DNA of 64,000 nucleotides from Rhodothermales bacterium (GTDB lineage: Bacteria; Bacteroidota; Rhodothermia; Rhodothermales; VXPQ01). Position numbers and translations under genes: made by a program. Below are positions 37,454-47,171 of the stretch, piece by piece. The notes beneath the pieces were generated by a model, which was not told where the DNA came from, ran no database searches, and saw only the letters and a program-made list of their open reading frames with translations. Positions within the stretch are counted from its first letter, which is position 1; each line of letters begins with the position of its first letter. The stretch lies in the NCBI GenBank assembly GCA_040904565.1, contig JBBDTI010000084.1, positions 1-64,000 of the forward strand, in the 5' to 3' direction.

Positions 37454-38758
37454 TTATTGAAGAGTTGGAAAGCCGTAGGTTTCGATGCGGCCTCCCGCCG
37501 CACGGAGCAGCTCATAGAAGGCGTTGTGAAGGTGCATCCTCATTTCAAGGCGAGAAAGGCGGGCGTCGCTGTAGGCTTCGGCGGCGTCGAGCAGCTCGAC
37601 GAGCGACATCTCGCCCTCGGCGTATCCTACCTGGGCCGCATGCAGCAGGCCGTCCGCATCCCCCAGCAGTCCCTCGCCGATTCGTTCGCTGCGTTCGGCG
37701 AGCGAGGCGTAGCGATCGTACGCACGCCGGACGTCGCGCTCCACGGACGCCTCCGTGAGGGCCCTCCGATGTTCCGCAGTCGATAGTGCGGCACCCCGTG
37801 CCGCTATCGTTCCACTGTTCCGGTCGAAGAGGGGCAGCGGGATGGCCGTCCCGACGAATACGCCCTTGAATCCGTTGCTCTGGCGCTTGTATCCGGCCGT
37901 TAGCGTGGGACTCGGGACGCGCTGCCGGCGTGCCTCCTGGGTGCGTGCGCGAGCGGCCTCGGCCGAGGCTCGAGCCCGAGCGAGGTCGGCCCGGTTCGAA
38001 CGTGCACGGTCGAGGGCGTCATCCAGCGCGACGCGGGACGGAACCGCGGGGAGATCCATTTCAACGTCGAGGCGGGCCGCCTCGATTTCCGGCAAAATGA
38101 GGAGAGCCAGGTCCCGGAGAGCGTCCCGGCGATCCAGGACCGCTTCGGCAAGGCGGTCCTCGTAGCGTGCACGTTCCACGCGAATACGCCGAAGCCGGTA
38201 TCCGGAAGCTTCCCCTTCCGTCGCGAGGCGGACGCTCGCGCTGTCAGCACGGCGGAAGAGATCTACTGCTTCGGAAAGGATGTCGCGCCGCTCCGTAGCG
38301 CCCGCGGCCTCCACGAACGTTCGGACGACTTCGAGAGCGAGTCGCAGGCTGTCGTTCTGCAGGTCGGCCCGAGCGACGGCCGTCATCCCTTTGGCCGCTT
38401 CAATGCGTGCCCGGCGCAGCGCCGGCCATTCGATGCGCTGGCTGAGGTTGACGTAACTCTCGGAAAGGGATTCATCCCCGCGCCAGATGGGTTCGTGGGT
38501 GATGGATGCGGAGGGATTGGGATACGCGGCGGCCTGCCGGGCGAGTCCGGCCATCTCATCGGCCCGTGTACGCGCGGCCCGCAGCTCCATATTATGCTGT
38601 GCGAACAGGTCAAGCGCCTCGCTCAGGGAAACGCGCTGCACCTGTGCCCGAATCTCGAGTGCGGAGACGCACCAGAGAACCATGATGAGGACATAACCGG
38701 TACCGAGACGCAGTCGTGTCCGAGCACGGCCTGTGCGGCGGTGTAAGTGGTTCGGCAC
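37454..38758 (-). CDS. TolC/CzcC family outer-membrane efflux protein
   Basis: YPNP, PLPLFDRNSG, GY.EGEMSLVELLDA. Confidence 0.9.
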   Translation of the reverse strand: MPNHLHRRTGRARTRLRLGTGYVLIMVLWCVSALEIRAQVQRVSLSEALDLFAQHNMELRAARTRADEMAGLARQAAAYPNPSASITHEPIWRGDESLSESYVNLSQRIEWPALRRARIEAAKGMTAVARADLQNDSLRLALEVVRTFVEAAGATERRDILSEAVDLFRRADSASVRLATEGEASGYRLRRIRVERARYEDRLAEAVLDRRDALRDLALLILPEIEAARLDVEMDLPAVPSRVALDDALDRARSNRADLARARASAEAARARTQEARRQRVPSPTLTAGYKRQSNGFKGVFVGTAIPLPLFDRNSGTIAARGAALSTAEHRRALTEASVERDVRRAYDRYASLAERSERIGEGLLGDADGLLHAAQVGYAEGEMSLVELLDAAEAYSDARLSRLEMRMHLHNAFYELLRAAGGRIETYGFPTLQ

Positions 38759-38926
38759 TTCTGAGATCTTCTCGTATGGAGCGGCCGTTACAGTATTATC
38801 GGGTACGATGGGCGCAGGGTTCGCGCCGGTCGCGCGCAGATTGTCAACGGGCCCGACATAGGAGAACCCTGCGTTGGGGTCCCTTTACATGCATTAGGGT
38901 CCATTCAGCAGTATACGGAAGCCCCC

Positions 38927-38964
38927 CTTTAGCCTGCCTTTTACCTTTCTTTAGAATTTTTAAG
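38927..38964. promoter_or_regulatory. 11-bp-period direct repeats, candidate OmpR-family regulator boxes
   Basis: CTTTAG 38927, CTTTTA 38938, CTTTAG 38949, TTAAG 38960. Confidence 0.4.
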
Positions 38965-38973
38965 GTTGATCTT

Positions 38974-39708
38974 ATGGCTCCGAGTGGTGACAGACCGACC
39001 GTCCTCCTCGTGGAGGACGAGCGGAGTCTCGCCGAGCCCGTTCAACGCGGCCTCCAGGAAGAAGGCTATGCCGTCGACGTAGCCGCGGACGGCCGAGATG
39101 GATTGATGCGGGCGCTCGCTGAAGACTACGACGTGCTCATCGTCGACTGGCGCCTGCCGCGGCTCGACGGTCGAACGCTCATCGAACGGCTGCGTGGCGC
39201 GAATCGACGTATGCCCATCCTGATGCTGACGGCCCGGCGCGACGTGGGGGACCGCGTGGCCGGGCTCGACGCGGGGGCTGACGATTACCTCACCAAGCCC
39301 TTCTCCTTCGAGGAGCTCCTGGCACGGCTCCGCGCGCTTCACCGGCGGGCGGATGCGTACGATCGGTCCACCGACGCGTTGAGAGCCGATCTCGTGGCCG
39401 GACCGCTTCGAATGGACGTGGCGCGCCGGACGGCGTGGCTGGGGGAGCAGGAACTGGAGCTGAGGACCAAAGAATTTCGGCTGCTCGAGCTTCTTATACG
39501 TCGTTCGGACGAGGTCGTCACCAGAACGGTAATCGCGGAGCGGGTATGGGGTTCGGCGTTCGATGTCACGGACAATGCCATCGACGTGACCGTATCGACG
39601 CTGCGAAGCCGGTTAAACGGATCGACGGATCCAGGAGGCGCGGTGCGGATCGAGACGGTCCGCGGTGTCGGGTATCGTCTCATTGCAGATCACGGGTCGG
39701 AGGAGTAG
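38974..39708 (+). CDS. OmpR-family response regulator (CusR/CzcR-like)
   Basis: LLVEDE, D..LPRLDG, GADDYLTKPF, IETVRGVGY; start moved to ATG 38974. Confidence 0.93.
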   Translation: MAPSGDRPTVLLVEDERSLAEPVQRGLQEEGYAVDVAADGRDGLMRALAEDYDVLIVDWRLPRLDGRTLIERLRGANRRMPILMLTARRDVGDRVAGLDAGADDYLTKPFSFEELLARLRALHRRADAYDRSTDALRADLVAGPLRMDVARRTAWLGEQELELRTKEFRLLELLIRRSDEVVTRTVIAERVWGSAFDVTDNAIDVTVSTLRSRLNGSTDPGGAVRIETVRGVGYRLIADHGSEE

Positions 39709-41115
39709 ATGATGACGTATCCCTTTCAGCAGTTCTCCATCTCGACGCGGCTCGCGGTCTGGTATGGACTCAGTTTCCTGCTCATGCTCTCGGTGTTCGT
39801 CGTCTTTCTGTACGCCAGCTTTCATCTCAGTCTCCATCACGATTTCAACGATCAGATGCAGGCGGACACGGAGCGAACGCTCGAGATGGTTTCCGGCAGC
39901 AGTAATGAGCCGCGGCTGGTGTCTGACGATGCGTTGTCCAGCGGCGCCTACACGATGGACGGCAGCGCGGGCACCTACGTTCGGGTTCTCTCATCGGATG
40001 GCGAGGTACTGCATCGCAGTGCCAACTTCCCGGCCGCGGCCTCCTTTTCGCCGCGTCCGCCGGCTGGAACGCTGGAGAGTAATCGAGGGCACTCGTGGCA
40101 GGGCGCGCCGGCACGCTCCACGTATGCGTCGGTGCGCGGACCGGATGGGTCGGCCGTCGGCTGGGTGGAGATCACGCGCCTGGAGTCCGCCGTACACCGC
40201 GAGCTGCATCGGTTGGGATGGCTTCTCGCCGTTGGGATCGTCCTCGGCACGGGCGTGGCGGCCGTGGCAGGTCATCGCCTGGCGCGCCGTGCGCTTCGGC
40301 CGGTTACGGACATCACGCAGGCCGCGCGTCGAATCGAGGCGGAAGATCTGCGGCAGCGGCTCCCGACGGAATTCGGGGTGCACGACGAGCTTACGGAGCT
40401 GGCCGAGACATTGAACGGCCTGCTCGAGCGGCTGGATGCGTCATTCACTCGTGAGCGCCGTTTTCGGGCGGACGCGGCACACGAGATGTTCACGCCGCTC
40501 TCGGCCATACAGAGCGAGACGGACGTAGCGCTGCGGATGGACCGGAGTCCACCTGCCTACCGGCAGTCCCTGGAAGCGGTCCGGCGGCACGCCGGCCGCA
40601 TGAGTACCATCGTGGAGGATCTCCTGGAACTATCGCGTGCGGAGGCGCTGCGGGTAGACGAGGTCGGCCCGGTGGACGTCGGCCGGGCTGTCGCCGGCGT
40701 CGTCGACGAGTTCCAGGGGCGGGCGGCGGAACGCGGCATTGCGCTCCGAATCCGGACGGATTCGGGCGTCGAGGCGCGAATCAGTCCGAGCGATCTCGTG
40801 AGCGTCGTTACAAACCTCATCGACAACGCGATCAAGTATACTCCCGAAAAGGGTTGCGTGGAGGCGGCTGTTCGTCTGGAGGGGCGCCATGCCGTCGTCC
40901 GCGTCAAGGATACGGGCAGGGGGCTATCCGGCGGGCAGAAAGAGCAGTTGTTCGATCGGTTCTACAGGGCAGGTAACGGCAAGGACGTACGCGGGAGCGG
41001 ACTCGGTCTGTCTATCGCGCAGGCCATCGTAGCTGCGTACGGCGGCACGCTGGACGCCGAGAGCAGCGGTGCCGGCGAAGGGAGTACCTTTACCGTACGG
41101 CTGCCGAGGGCCTGA
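39709..41115 (+). CDS. HAMP sensor histidine kinase (heavy-metal sensor type)
   Basis: Two TM helices, HAMP, DAAHEMFTPL H-box, NLIDNAIKY, D.G.G, GSGLGL. Confidence 0.93.
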   Translation: MMTYPFQQFSISTRLAVWYGLSFLLMLSVFVVFLYASFHLSLHHDFNDQMQADTERTLEMVSGSSNEPRLVSDDALSSGAYTMDGSAGTYVRVLSSDGEVLHRSANFPAAASFSPRPPAGTLESNRGHSWQGAPARSTYASVRGPDGSAVGWVEITRLESAVHRELHRLGWLLAVGIVLGTGVAAVAGHRLARRALRPVTDITQAARRIEAEDLRQRLPTEFGVHDELTELAETLNGLLERLDASFTRERRFRADAAHEMFTPLSAIQSETDVALRMDRSPPAYRQSLEAVRRHAGRMSTIVEDLLELSRAEALRVDEVGPVDVGRAVAGVVDEFQGRAAERGIALRIRTDSGVEARISPSDLVSVVTNLIDNAIKYTPEKGCVEAAVRLEGRHAVVRVKDTGRGLSGGQKEQLFDRFYRAGNGKDVRGSGLGLSIAQAIVAAYGGTLDAESSGAGEGSTFTVRLPRA

Positions 41116-41133: not shown

Positions 41134-41679
41134 CTACGCCGCCACCGGCTTCAGCAGCGCGCGCACGCCGAAGGGCATGCGCCGGTCGCGCTCCGTCCAT
41201 TCCAGGTGCGGATCGGCATCGGGAAACGACGCCCCCAGCGCGGACTCCAGCGAATCTCTTAGGAGATCGAGCGATGCGGCCTCGTTCGGGACCTGGAGCC
41301 GGTCCAGGAAGATCACCTCGATCTCGTTCCGGTCGAACGTAAGGTCGGTCTCGTCTTCCAACCGGTCGGCGGCCTGCAGCACCTGGCCCAGGGCCAGCCC
41401 AATCGCTTCGGCGGTATCCTCCGGGACGTCTCGCTTGCGCGTGTAGATGAGCCCTGGACGTCCGTAGGCGAGGTCTATGCCGTAGTCCGCCTCGTGGGCG
41501 ATCAGCATGACGCCCGGCCCGTCGGGGACGTGGGCGTAGTTGGCCACGTCGATCAGGAGCTCTTCAAAGGCCTGCTCCTGGATCCACGAGTGAAAGACCG
41601 GGATCAGGGCTTCCATGTCGAGCTCTTCCGGGTTCTCGAGGAAGAGCTTGGCCTGAATGCGGTGAAGTTGCATCGTCAT
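41134..41679 (-). CDS. Hypothetical protein, likely cotranscribed with the sulfite reductase
   Basis: Starts 4 bp after the reductase stop; VFHSWIQ...LIDVANYAHVPDGPGVMLIAHEADY. Confidence 0.75.
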   Translation of the reverse strand: MTMQLHRIQAKLFLENPEELDMEALIPVFHSWIQEQAFEELLIDVANYAHVPDGPGVMLIAHEADYGIDLAYGRPGLIYTRKRDVPEDTAEAIGLALGQVLQAADRLEDETDLTFDRNEIEVIFLDRLQVPNEAASLDLLRDSLESALGASFPDADPHLEWTERDRRMPFGVRALLKPVAA

Positions 41680-41683
41680 GGTA

Positions 41684-44176
<2,493 letters not shown>

Positions 44177-44210
44177 AATGGTATCGGGGGATACGTATTG
44201 GGGGTATAAC

Positions 44211-44245
44211 AAAAAAAGCCCACCTGCCGCGCGGGCAAGTGGGCT
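44211..44245 (-). terminator. Intrinsic terminator (attenuator) upstream of the sulfite reductase
   Basis: mRNA AGCCCACUUGCC-CGCGC-GGCAGGUGGGCU running into a U7 tract. Confidence 0.9.
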
Positions 44246-44279
44246 CTCGGAATGTGGATACGATAATCTCGATCCGGAG

Positions 44280-44405
44280 CTAAGAGGACCTCCGTTTGAA
44301 GCCATCCCCTACCACTGGCACGCACGGCGCGCAGGCGTTCGAACAGCAACAACAACAGGCTGCCGTCGGCATGTAAGGGATACGAATCACGATCATCGGC
44401 ATCAT
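44280..44405 (-). CDS. Poly-cysteine leader peptide
   Basis: MMPMIVIRIPYMPTAACCCCCSNACAPCVPVVGDGFKRRSS*; alternative starts at 44402, 44396 and 44372. Confidence 0.85.
   Translation of the reverse strand: MMPMIVIRIPYMPTAACCCCCSNACAPCVPVVGDGFKRRSS
44312..44328 (-). promoter_or_regulatory. Antiterminator strand of the cysteine attenuator
   Basis: mRNA GCCGUGCGUGCCAGUGG pairs 15/17 (including one GU) with CCACUUGCCCGCGCGGC (44226-44242) of the terminator. Confidence 0.8.
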
Positions 44406-44733
44406 TTCGAGAATTATCACTTACGCTACGATCAGGCCACGGGAAAGTTCACGATGAAGTTCACGGCGCGGATCGTGCTGTTCTGAAAAGTAGCCATCGG
44501 GGCGCCAACAGCGCAAGTCTTCACTTGCCGCCGTGCACGCCTGAGACTCGGTGCCCGTACGGGGAGGCCCCTTCCGCACACCCTGGCGGGGTGCGTACCT
44601 CTTCGGCGTAACGCGGCGACGCCGAGCGGCACATAATCATCGCCGACCATCGGGATAAAGACGGCGTGCCGCGGCCCGTCCGCGTATGGTCGATGGAGGG
44701 TCGGGGCAATCATGCGTTCGCGCGAGGGGAGAA

Positions 44734-45369
44734 ATGTTTGAGAGGCTCCGGCGTAGATTTGGTCGAAGACCCAAGCGGCGAAGTAATGCGGAATGGGTGC
44801 GCGATCTTGCGGCGGCCGACTCGCATGCGATCACGGATCTTCGTGCGGAGCTGTTGCGCGGCGTCCGGATCGTACTTCGTCGCCGTGCTCCGGCGAAGGC
44901 GGAGGATCTTGCTGAAGATTTCGTCCAGGAGGCCGTGCTGAAGATCCTCGTTAGCCTCGACTCGTTCCGAGGAGACAGCCGCTTCATGACCTGGGCCCAA
45001 ACCATCGTTGTTCGAGTCGCCTTCACGGAGCTGCGGCGGAAACGATGGGAGAACGTTTCGCTGGACGGACTCGTGGATGAGCGGCCGTTTGGGGGTCTCG
45101 ACGCAGCGGGCGATGCGGCTGTTTCAGAGACGCTGTCTGAGCGGAATGCGGCCGGTCTGCTGCGCGAGCTGATGCAGTCGGAGCTCACCGAGAAGCAGCG
45201 CACCGCGATTGAGGCGGTCATGCTGCACGGCATGCCTATCGATGAGGTAGCGCGGCGGATGGATTCGAACAGAAACGCGCTTTACAAGCTGCTCCACGAT
45301 GCACGCAAGCGGTTGAAGGAAGGATTCGAGGCGCGCGGCCTGACCCTCGAGCAATTGCTCGACGATTAG
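44734..45369 (+). CDS. ECF RNA polymerase sigma factor
   Basis: AEDFVQEA, SFRGDSRFMTW (region 2); LTEKQR...EVARRM...ALYKLLHDARKRLK (region 4). Confidence 0.92.
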   Translation: MFERLRRRFGRRPKRRSNAEWVRDLAAADSHAITDLRAELLRGVRIVLRRRAPAKAEDLAEDFVQEAVLKILVSLDSFRGDSRFMTWAQTIVVRVAFTELRRKRWENVSLDGLVDERPFGGLDAAGDAAVSETLSERNAAGLLRELMQSELTEKQRTAIEAVMLHGMPIDEVARRMDSNRNALYKLLHDARKRLKEGFEARGLTLEQLLDD

Positions 45370-45376
45370 CCCATCG

Positions 45377-45404
45377 GGTAAGGTTTCCTCGCCGTAAAGC
45401 GTCT
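45377..45404 (+). promoter_or_regulatory. ECF-type promoter GGTAAG-N17-CGTCT before the anti-sigma gene
   Basis: Same boxes and spacing recur at 47765-47792 (minus) and 47921-47947 (plus). Confidence 0.65.
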
Positions 45405-45420
45405 GGATGTTGAACGGAGG

Positions 45421-45681
45421 ATGATGAGAATGAAGCTTACGCGTACCGTCATCAAGGCCATACTCGAAGCCGTTTTTGCCACACAGCCGGTCGAAATCGG
45501 CTGCGACGAGTGCTTTGAGCAGGTTCACCGATTTGCAGAGATGGAGCTCGCCGGTGAAGACGCCGCGTCGGCGCTCCCGCTCGTTCAGTCGCACCTCGAA
45601 CGGTGCCGCGACTGCCGGGAGGAATTTGAGATGCTGCTGGCGGCGCTGCGTGCCGTTGCCGGAAACAACTCCCCGAAATGA
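45421..45681 (+). CDS. Soluble zinc-finger (zf-HC2/ZAS) anti-sigma factor
   Basis: CDEC...HLERCRDC; GGAGG RBS; directly after the sigma gene. Confidence 0.85.
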   Translation: MMRMKLTRTVIKAILEAVFATQPVEIGCDECFEQVHRFAEMELAGEDAASALPLVQSHLERCRDCREEFEMLLAALRAVAGNNSPK

Positions 45682-45697
45682 ATGCTTCGTACCTGAG

Positions 45698-46237
45698 ATG
45701 ATGTCCGGAGAGCATAACACCGTATGGAGCCTGTTCCTTCTCGGCGCCGTGATGGTGCTGCTCGTCGTCTCCGGATGCGCGGGGGATGAAGATTCGAGAG
45801 AGGCCGTACGGTCGCCAGTGGCGGTTCTGGAGGCCGCGCCGGATTTCGAGCGTGTCACGATGGAGGGCGACACGCTACGCCTTTCGGAGCTCGATGCGAG
45901 CGCGATCGTGCTCAATTTCTGGGCCACGTGGTGCGCGCCATGCAGGGTCGAAATCCCGGGATTCATAGCGATTCAGGAAGAGATGGACGCTGAGCGGGTC
46001 CGGTTTGTCGGCGTCTCGTTCGACGAAGACGGATTTGAAGCGGTCCGGCCGTACGCTGAAGAAATGGGCATCAATTACCCCCTCGTGATCGGAGACGATG
46101 CACTGGCGAGCGATTTCGGCGGCGTGCCCGGCCTTCCCACCACGTTCTTGCTCGACGGCGGCCTGCACATTCGCCAGCGGTTCGTCGGGGTTGTGGATGA
46201 AGAGACGCTGCGCTCCGTACTGGAGGACATGCTCTAA
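45698..46237 (+). CDS. TlpA/ResA-like thiol-disulfide oxidoreductase lipoprotein
   Basis: VSGC lipobox; NFWATWCAPC, GLPTTF. Confidence 0.9.
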   Translation: MMSGEHNTVWSLFLLGAVMVLLVVSGCAGDEDSREAVRSPVAVLEAAPDFERVTMEGDTLRLSELDASAIVLNFWATWCAPCRVEIPGFIAIQEEMDAERVRFVGVSFDEDGFEAVRPYAEEMGINYPLVIGDDALASDFGGVPGLPTTFLLDGGLHIRQRFVGVVDEETLRSVLEDML

Positions 46238-46632
46238 CGATCCTCCCCGGAGGACGTCTCGCGGACGGAGTGTGCGACGACGCCGGAAGAGGAAACCACG
46301 AGCGTGAACCGGATACGGTCGTCCACGTCGATGCCGCCTACAGAAGCGGTGTCGCTTACGGCGAAGGGCATCGTCATCGCGTGCATGAAGCCGGGTATCT
46401 CGTCGTGTTCGACGACGATATGGCTACCGCTCGGCGTGATGGAGCGCAGGACCCCCGTGACCTCGTAGTGTCGTTCGGAGGGCTCCTCCGTCTCCGGTGG
46501 GGTCGTCGTCATTTCTGCTTCCTGTTCGCCGGGTATCGGAGGAGGATCCGCCGATTCGCTGCTGCAGCTCACCAGGAGCAGACCTGTGAGCAACAGAACG
46601 ACGACGGGGATCGCTGTTGGATATGCGTGCAT
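46234..46632 (-). CDS. CusF-like copper-binding lipoprotein
   Basis: LVSC lipobox; HDEIPGFMHAMTMPF. Confidence 0.85.
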   Translation of the reverse strand: MHAYPTAIPVVVLLLTGLLLVSCSSESADPPPIPGEQEAEMTTTPPETEEPSERHYEVTGVLRSITPSGSHIVVEHDEIPGFMHAMTMPFAVSDTASVGGIDVDDRIRFTLVVSSSGVVAHSVRETSSGEDR

Positions 46633-46673
46633 GTCCCGCTGCTTCCTAACTCGACTACACTCCTGTTCCACGC

Positions 46674-47171
46674 CTAAAGGATGAACGTCCACTCGTCACC
46701 CTGCTGGAGTTCCACGCGCTGGGGGATCAGCACGCCGTTCGATCGGACCTCGCCGCGGACGCGAACGGTCTGCGCCATGTAGTCGGCGAGGACGGCTGGT
46801 GCCGTCACCAGAATCCAGACGTCGGGTCCCCGCTTGTCGTCCAGTAGCAGGCCAACCGGGAAACCGCTGCGGGCGCAGAGGATCGCACAGTCCGGCACGA
46901 ACCCTTGCGGACGATCGTGGTCAAGGCCGGCGTTGGCGTGATCGTCCGCGTAGCAGTGCGTGTCGATGAGCGTGCCGGTCAGAGCGATCACGTCTCCCGG
47001 CGCGGCCGCCATCGGTGGCCGTCCGGACGGATCGGTGGCCCCGTCGCGGCCTTCCGCGGCCTCGTCTTGCCTGCCGTCGGCGTCCGGTGGAATCTCGGGT
47101 TCGTCCGCCTGGCATCCGACCAGCAGTACGAGCACAATAAGGGACGAAAGTATCATAAATCGATGGACCAT
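46674..47171 (-). CDS. Hypothetical lipoprotein with DxxCY...CAxxC motif
   Basis: LVGC lipobox; GTLIDTHCY...CAILCARSGFPVGLL. Confidence 0.75.
   Translation of the reverse strand: MVHRFMILSSLIVLVLLVGCQADEPEIPPDADGRQDEAAEGRDGATDPSGRPPMAAAPGDVIALTGTLIDTHCYADDHANAGLDHDRPQGFVPDCAILCARSGFPVGLLLDDKRGPDVWILVTAPAVLADYMAQTVRVRGEVRSNGVLIPQRVELQQGDEWTFIL

Follow-up and report, generated by a model that had tools for sequence, protein, structure and literature searches.

We analysed a stretch of 64,000 nucleotides (nt) from the genome of a Rhodothermales bacterium (GenBank assembly GCA_040904565.1, contig JBBDTI010000084.1, positions 1 to 64,000), which is called the window below. Its minus strand carries a gene for a NirA/SirA-type siroheme-[4Fe-4S] reductase, and the 5′ leader of this gene contains a short open reading frame (ORF) with a run of cysteine (Cys) codons, followed by an intrinsic terminator. 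We examined this leader as a candidate cysteine-sensing transcription attenuator. Its elements are listed in Table 1, together with two similar leaders that were found elsewhere in the same genome.

Table 1. Leader elements, the reductase gene and the two sister leaders (window numbering unless a contig is named)
Feature	Position	Strand	Description or basis
Leader ORF	44280–44405	minus	41 codons plus stop codon TAG (44282–44280); tandem ATG start
Run of five Cys codons, proposed stall site	44343–44357	minus	four TGT and one TGC; sequence and translation
Local hairpin, proposed 1:2 anti-antiterminator	44313–44337	minus	minimum free energy (MFE) structure of the naked leader
Antiterminator 5′ arm (region 2)	44312–44328	minus	pairs with 44242–44226
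Intrinsic terminator (regions 3:4)	44211–44248	minus	stem of 15 base pairs (bp), 5-nt loop, T7 at 44217–44211
Spacer, terminator to reductase ATG	44177–44210	minus	34 nt, non-coding
Regulated NirA/SirA-type siroheme-[4Fe-4S] reductase	41684–44176	minus	830 amino acids; Pfam, NCBIfam, PDB
Divergent intergenic region, must hold the leader-reductase promoter	44406–44685		strand of the neighbouring gene
Poly-Cys leader on contig C79	76781–76984 (6282–6485 of locus L126)	minus	nine consecutive Cys codons; GTG start
Poly-Cys leader on contig C83	73022–73186 (323–487 of locus L127)	plus	five consecutive Cys codons

The translation of the leader ORF is identical to that given in a first-pass annotation of this DNA, which had proposed the attenuator, and the five consecutive Cys codons and two more that it described are present in the sequence. 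The run occupies leader codons 17–21, and the two further Cys codons are located at 44333–44331 and 44324–44322. No Shine-Dalgarno sequence is visible before the leader ORF. The same annotation placed a GC hairpin and a run of seven U residues 34 nt before the reductase ATG, and these coordinates proved accurate. The core stem of the terminator is formed by 44244–44234 and 44228–44218 with a loop at 44233–44229, and 34 nt separate the end of the T run from the ATG at 44176. With the flanking A-U pairs, the 15-bp stem spans 44248–44214 and has a predicted energy of −26.9 kcal/mol (z = −5.5), which was matched by none of 200 shuffled sequences.

A segment shortly after the Cys run offers an alternative pairing partner for the terminator. 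Checking by hand on the sequence bore out the claim that 15 of the 17 positions in 44328–44312 pair with 44242–44226, with one G-U pair, and the duplex has a predicted energy of −26.0 kcal/mol. Since this segment pairs with the 5′ arm and loop of the terminator, the antiterminator and the terminator are mutually exclusive, again as had been proposed. When the 94 nt from the Cys run to the terminator were shuffled with preservation of dinucleotides, a pairing of 15 of 17 was reached in 5 of 1000 shuffles.

The gene upstream of the leader encodes an extracytoplasmic function (ECF)-type sigma factor and is located on the plus strand (44686–45369). Because this neighbour is divergent, the terminator serves no other gene and sits in the reductase's own 5′ leader. 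The 34-nt spacer between the terminator and the reductase ATG is too short for a separate promoter with its leader.

Recurrence of the poly-cysteine leader

Among 285 searched genomes labelled Rhodothermales, this type of reductase was found in 19. In 17 of these 19 loci, a short ORF (sORF) with a Cys cluster is located at most 500 nt upstream of the orthologous reductase gene on the coding strand, compared with 0 of 19 on the reverse complement. The leader is also present in G039, a complete genome in a single contig. This search of orthologous upstream regions had been put forward as a check by the first-pass annotation, and its outcome favours the proposal. A hairpin followed by a T run is present 20–43 nt past the sORF stop codon in all 16 loci of the order that were analysed, a set that leaves out the near-duplicate locus L114. 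The predicted stem energies range from −12.8 to −27.8 kcal/mol, and the stem sequences differ. Outside the Cys cluster, the leader peptides have no residues that are conserved across the 17 loci. In the nearest relative (L003), whose reductase is 88% identical to that in the window, the DNA is conserved from the Cys run through the local hairpin and the antiterminator arm, whereas the encoded residues mostly differ. This retention of the DNA despite a different peptide indicates constraint at the levels of RNA and codons rather than constraint on a functional peptide.

The genome to which the window belongs was scanned on both strands, in all six frames, for short reading frames that hold a Cys cluster and are followed by a terminator-like hairpin. 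Genome-wide, 274 short frames with Cys clusters were found, 11 of which have a terminator-like hairpin nearby. Three frames combine at least five consecutive Cys codons with the strongest hairpins (−22.8 to −32.6 kcal/mol), namely the leader in the window and one leader each on contigs C79 and C83. The C79 leader has its terminator (−22.8 kcal/mol) 25 nt past the stop codon and precedes three genes, which encode a cysM-like pyridoxal phosphate enzyme with the fold of cysteine synthases (PALP), a protein with a JAB domain, and a fusion of ThiS, ThiF and rhodanese; these are the genes of the CysM/CysO/Mec thiocarboxylate route to cysteine. The terminator of the C83 leader (−32.6 kcal/mol) is located 29 nt past the stop codon, and the genes that follow are cobA (uroporphyrinogen methyltransferase, TP_methylase), cysH (3′-phosphoadenosine 5′-phosphosulfate (PAPS)/adenosine 5′-phosphosulfate (APS) reductase) and a siroheme synthase gene. 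Contig C83 ends soon after these genes, and the operon may be longer. A scan of other cys genes in the genome for like elements, which had also been suggested, thus yielded two further poly-Cys sORFs with terminators. Because the same device is present at two further operons, it would act as a cysteine regulon.

Runs of at least five Cys codons, counted in any frame, occur four times in the genome, and three of the four precede cysteine or sulfur-assimilation operons. The fourth, with six Cys codons, is in a 131-codon frame on contig C31 that lies beyond the length limit of the terminator scan. The sister operons were followed in 41 relatives. A poly-Cys sORF is present upstream of 14 of 15 cysM-like orthologues, versus 0 of 15 on the reverse complement, and upstream of 6 of 24 cobA orthologues, versus 1 of 24. 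Several of the cobA genes (for example, in L153 and L162) are located, by genome coordinates, just downstream of the reductase gene or a related nirA-like gene, so that the operon often opens with a gene other than cobA. Rfam gave only sub-threshold matches at both sister loci, over the terminator, and no relevant family in the window at 43000–46000 with E values up to 10.

The choice of Cys codons is also skewed. TGT accounts for 23% of the Cys codons in the long ORFs of this genome, and it makes up four of the five codons in the window run. In the sister leaders, TGT fills 7 of the 9 positions of the C79 run and 3 of the 5 positions of the C83 run. The assembly, which is 94.9% complete, has one tRNA-Cys gene, with the anticodon GCA. 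A preference for the rarer, wobble-read TGT codon would fit a sensor that works by stalling.

To look beyond the order, the best 80 orthologous loci were taken from a named genome collection. They are mostly from Chloroflexota, Acidobacteriota, Myxococcota and Latescibacterota, and 74 of them have the full upstream region. A Cys-cluster sORF is located upstream in 17 of the 74 loci, versus 1 of 74 on the reverse complement. Two of these 17 are Rhodothermales contigs, and the rest are mostly from Chloroflexota (Aggregatilineales, Promineifilaceae, Ardenticatenaceae and Caldilineales; L042, L051, L054, L058, L060, L061, L065, L066, L068, L070, L071, L073 and L098), with one locus, L081, from Acidobacteriota. 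A hairpin and a T run are clear after most of the sORFs from other phyla. Some of these groups have a spacer of 57–85 nt from stop codon to terminator and showed no antiterminator signal. The leader peptide families are clade-specific in these phyla, those of Caldilineales being long, with a very high Cys content. The reductases are 59–71% identical across these phyla, and transfer of the reductase gene between phyla, with or without its leader, is possible. The recurrence in several Chloroflexota orders may be independent or the result of transfer together with the reductase gene.

We give a little better than an even chance to the broader proposal that these leaders make up a complete regulon. 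It would take in the reduction of sulfite, the reduction of APS/PAPS together with the synthesis of siroheme, and the route to cysteine through CysM and a thiocarboxylate carrier; it would be the main control of sulfur assimilation across Rhodothermales, and it would recur in several Chloroflexota orders.

Short sequence words upstream of the leader ORFs were noted by eye. A 7-nt word at about 44425–44431 of the window is common to the C79 leader (about 6480–6490 of L126) and L008, and a longer upstream word is common to L002, L008, L009, L120 and L124. These words are located tens of nt 5′ of the leader ORFs and may represent parts of promoters or a site for a regulator. A −10-like hexamer, also read only by eye, ends 7 nt before the leader ATG in the window. 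That transcription may start leaderless at the leader ORF is only an idea.

Predicted folding and the attenuation model

When the naked leader was folded from the ORF start to the T run, the terminator form had an energy of −88.1 kcal/mol, compared with −75.7 kcal/mol when the antiterminator was forced, a cost of 12.4 kcal/mol. Because the naked leader folds to the terminator form, the default state of an untranslated leader would be termination, as in classical attenuators. In the MFE structure, the antiterminator arm is held in two ways: by the local hairpin at 44337–44313, whose 3′ strand belongs to the arm and which has an energy of −10.4 kcal/mol alone, and by long-range pairs of the 5′ part of the ORF (44403–44373 with 44311–44255).

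A stalled ribosome was modelled by removing all RNA up to 13 nt past the A site. With the 5′ RNA masked in this way, the antiterminator form wins when the ribosome is stalled at Cys codons 1–2 (−59.5 versus −57.0 kcal/mol), and the two forms tie at codon 3. When the transcript ends before the terminator 3′ arm, which in this model is the kinetically relevant state, the antiterminator forms at all five stall positions. Both sister leaders form an analogous antiterminator in truncated, stalled folds, with the arms just after the Cys runs. Equilibrium folds of whole leaders with the full terminator switched only in the window, L003 and a few others; we judged such folding to be the wrong test for a kinetic switch, and truncated transcripts were therefore used.

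The leader has the sequence features of the trp/his class, namely a leader ORF, cognate codons, an intrinsic terminator, an exclusive alternative pairing and cognate biosynthetic genes. We consider it likely, on sequence grounds, that the element is a leader-peptide attenuator of this type, in which a translating ribosome would sense cysteine and control transcription. The core of the first-pass proposal is supported by the orthologous loci of the order, the two sister elements, the cysM-like orthologues and the divergent neighbour.

From these elements, we infer the following course of events. Transcription would begin between the two divergent genes, and translation of the 41-codon leader would proceed during its synthesis. 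When Cys-tRNA is scarce, the ribosome would stall on the five-Cys run and prevent or weaken the local hairpin, thereby freeing 44328–44312. The freed segment would pair with the emerging 5′ arm and loop of the terminator (44242–44226) and block terminator formation, and RNA polymerase would continue into the reductase gene. When Cys-tRNA is plentiful or the leader is untranslated, the ribosome, if any, would reach the stop codon, the antiterminator strand would be captured by upstream pairing, and the 15-bp terminator with U7 would form, so that transcription would end about 34 nt short of the reductase ATG. In the notation of four regions, region 1 would be that strand of the local hairpin which lies on its 5′ side, where the stalled ribosome has its leading edge, region 2 the segment 44328–44312, region 3 the terminator 5′ arm and loop, and region 4 the terminator 3′ arm. 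The same device would control the cysM-like/JAB/ThiS-ThiF-rhodanese operon and the cobA/cysH/siroheme-synthase operon.

This scheme departs from the first-pass annotation in one step. The annotation had the ribosome cover the antiterminator strand when cysteine is plentiful, which is probably not the case. The leader stop codon is located 30 nt downstream of the antiterminator arm, and a terminating ribosome would therefore leave the arm uncovered. It is more likely, in the folding model, that the arm is then taken up by the local hairpin rather than by the ribosome.

Several results weigh against the attenuator or against the helices assigned to it. The position of the stop codon is unlike the trp design, in which region 2 lies under the terminating ribosome. 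Two loci of the order, G034 and G119, both of one family, are without the leader. A promoter scan of 43900–44900 gave no site on the minus strand, and the sole promoter-like site was on the plus strand. Statistical support for the antiterminator is uneven. A gapped duplex measure did not separate the window from its shuffles (z = −0.32); this statistic is non-discriminating in GC-rich RNA and was replaced by the probability of sequestration and by ungapped measures. The terminator 5′ arm of the window is sequestered with a probability of 0.80, compared with 0.50 ± 0.26 in shuffled sequences, and 9 of 100 shuffles reached a value as high. In 22 of 28 loci, the arm is sequestered more strongly than in the mean of the shuffles, with a pooled Wilcoxon p of 6e-4 that overstates the case because the loci are kin. 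With the ungapped segment test, no more than 4 of the 16 loci of the order, and 1 of the 12 remaining loci, had p ≤ 0.05. In the stalled-ribosome model, equilibrium folding favours the terminator at Cys codons 4 and 5. Finally, when only the ribosome footprint (about 30 nt) was masked, the 5′ arm was sequestered with a probability of 0.01–0.24 for a ribosome on the Cys codons, and sequestration reached 0.8 only with the ribosome at codons 5–10. Folding of both conformers, which the first-pass annotation had named as a check, therefore gave a divided answer: a switch that depends on ribosome position appears with the 5′ RNA masked and is absent under the footprint-only mask. We see about an even chance that the competing helices are exactly those named in that annotation.

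One alternative is that the cysteine attenuator is real but works through other structures, such as a different or extended antiterminator, queued ribosomes over the 5′ part of the ORF, or added translational control or Rho. Under the footprint-only mask, the antiterminator does not form with a ribosome on the Cys codons but forms with one over codons 5–10, as a queued second ribosome would be; the long-range pairs of the naked MFE structure involve the 5′ part of the ORF; an extended antiterminator (44337–44312) that also captures the terminator 3′ arm reaches −38.3 kcal/mol; and one family of the order (L120–L125) gives weak statistics for the antiterminator. However, L003 has kept the Cys run, the local hairpin and the arm but not the 5′ part of the ORF; the 15 of 17 pairing is rare among shuffles; and both sister leaders carry analogous arms right after their Cys runs. 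The long-range pairs would deserve less weight because they draw on this unconserved 5′ part, which would lie under a second, queued ribosome. On balance, we regard a mechanism with different competing structures as unlikely.

The sORF could alternatively encode a functional Cys-rich small protein, either metal- or redox-binding or a peptide precursor, with the hairpin as its leaky terminator and the reductase controlled in some other way. The long Cys-rich ORFs of three Chloroflexota loci (L070, L071 and L073), with repeated Cys-Ser patterns, do resemble metal-binding sequences. Yet the absence of conserved residues outside the Cys cluster, the differing peptides of the closest pair despite conserved DNA, the recurrence of this architecture ahead of three distinct operons for cysteine or sulfur assimilation within the genome, the lack of space for an independent promoter and leader between terminator and ATG, and the preference for the rare TGT codon all argue for an attenuator, and we hold a functional small protein to be very improbable. 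Coincidence, in the form of an off-frame Cys run in GC-rich DNA beside an unrelated hairpin, is effectively refuted. GC-rich genomes do yield off-frame Cys runs, and one six-Cys run is located on contig C31, but the counts for the reductase and cysM-like orthologues set against their reverse complements, and the location of three of the four longest Cys-codon runs before cysteine-pathway operons with strong terminators after them, are at odds with chance.

The reductase and its start codon

The reductase has two NIR_SIR and two NIR_SIR_ferr domains in Pfam. The best NCBIfam matches were 'NirA family protein' and ferredoxin-nitrite reductase, and every NCBIfam match was below the equivalog cut-off. 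The closest solved relative is PDB entry 1zj8, the NirA entry of M. tuberculosis. This enzyme has reportedly been shown to be a sulfite reductase. Homology places the window protein only among NirA/SirA-type siroheme reductases, with 'sulfite reductase' as a family-level label. The Cys leader is the best argument for sulfite as the substrate, and it makes the sulfite label more likely.

An in-frame ATG at 44305, which would extend the gene to an 873-amino-acid ORF through the 3′ end of the leader and the terminator, was rejected as the reductase start. Orthologues align from residues 1–3 of the protein that starts at 44176. In addition, the spacer differs from that of L003 by a 22-nt indel, indicating that the spacer is non-coding and that ATG 44305 is not the start. 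Automatic gene callers could pick ATG 44305 and so hide the attenuator.

The protein has a C-terminal extension of about 250 amino acids (41684–42436, minus strand), which is conserved among orthologues to about residue 770. No credible Pfam match was found for the extension at E values up to 1, since the two weak matches (E = 0.007 and 0.16) did not reach the gathering cut-offs, and a comparison with PDB sequences gave nothing. An ORF of 181 amino acids (41134–41679, minus strand) begins 4 nt past the reductase stop codon and is probably co-transcribed with the reductase gene. It had no match in NCBIfam, and no credible one in Pfam at E values up to 1.

Relation to known leader peptides

Classical attenuators are described as a short leader ORF with codons for the end product and an intrinsic terminator that is in exclusive competition with an upstream pairing (bioRxiv 10.1101/834739; PMC1262725). 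The reductase leader shares with the trp, his, leu, thr, pheA and ilv leaders of proteobacteria and the trp and ilvB leaders of actinobacteria a leader rich in cognate codons, a terminator and a position before biosynthetic genes. It differs from them in the amino acid, which is cysteine; in its hosts, Rhodothermales and Chloroflexota; in the lack of a visible Shine-Dalgarno sequence; in a stop codon that is located 30 nt past the antiterminator arm rather than adjoining it; and in the parallel presence of the device at three operons of one pathway.

Poly-Cys leaders are known from mycobacteria. In Canestrari et al., a leaderless polycysteine sORF (Ms5788A) is located upstream of cysteine and sulfur genes and responds to cysteine, and the authors state that, to their knowledge, attenuation by an upstream ORF had not previously been described for cysteine (bioRxiv 10.1101/834739). 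The mechanism given there acts on translation: the Cys tract base-pairs with the next gene's Shine-Dalgarno region, a transcriptional reporter did not respond to cysteine, and there was no effect on transcription past the sORF. Seliverstov et al. report no terminators at mycobacterial Cys leaders (PMC1262725). A 2026 paper names four Cys-responsive attenuator sORFs of M. tuberculosis, Rv2334A, Rv0815A, Rv0485A and Rv2391A (PMC13096801). The leaders described here are like the mycobacterial ones in that a poly-Cys sORF is located upstream of cysteine and sulfur genes. Unlike them, the reductase leader has a strong hairpin and U7 after the sORF, and its Cys tract is predicted to pair locally, not with the start region of the reductase gene. 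Rv2391 is sirA, the sulfite reductase gene of M. tuberculosis, whose product is also the closest solved relative of the reductase in the window (1zj8), and a Cys leader in front of a sulfite reductase therefore probably has a precedent.

A terminator-type candidate has been predicted at another cysteine gene. According to Brewer et al. (2021, PMC8632094), uORFC-8-2, upstream of cysS in Rhodobacterales, is a predicted ribosome-mediated attenuator with tandem Cys codons, a terminator stem and a U run; it has two Cys codons near positions 14–15, precedes the gene for cysteinyl-tRNA synthetase and occurs in alphaproteobacteria only. In contrast, the leaders described here have five to nine consecutive Cys codons, precede genes for sulfite reduction and cysteine synthesis, and are found in other phyla. 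A full-text literature search, with many subscription papers and supplements outside its reach, so that an earlier report is possible, gave no account of a terminator-type Cys attenuator ahead of genes for sulfite reductase or cysteine synthesis, nor of one from Rhodothermales, Bacteroidota or Chloroflexota; the cysteine attenuators that it did turn up were the translational ones of mycobacteria and the predicted cysS leader. Within this search, the terminator-based form is new. What would be new is the amino acid and pathway for terminator-type attenuation, the lineages, and a conserved regulon of three operons.

If the broader proposal of a regulon is true, this would be the first cysteine biosynthetic pathway known under classical transcription attenuation, with runs of up to nine identical codons. 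Cysteine is a conspicuous gap among the amino acids with classical leader-peptide attenuation, which a conserved regulon in Rhodothermales and Chloroflexota would fill, in groups where little is known of gene regulation and translation starts without Shine-Dalgarno sequences. For NirA-like enzymes, the leader could guide annotation towards sulfite and away from nitrite reductase; it could also mark the correct reductase start codon and be used as a small genetic switch that responds to cysteine. The leaders, with between 3 and 9 Cys codons, would provide a natural series for relating run length to sensitivity.

On the plus strand, a gene for an AhpC/TSA-thioredoxin-like protein follows that of the ECF-type sigma factor, and the pair spans 44686–46237; they may have a redox or sulfur connection with the reductase. 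The flanking regions at 37454–41115 and 46234–46692 encode an outer-membrane efflux protein, a response regulator/histidine kinase pair and a CusF-like periplasmic copper-binding protein, all apparently unrelated to the leader and the reductase.

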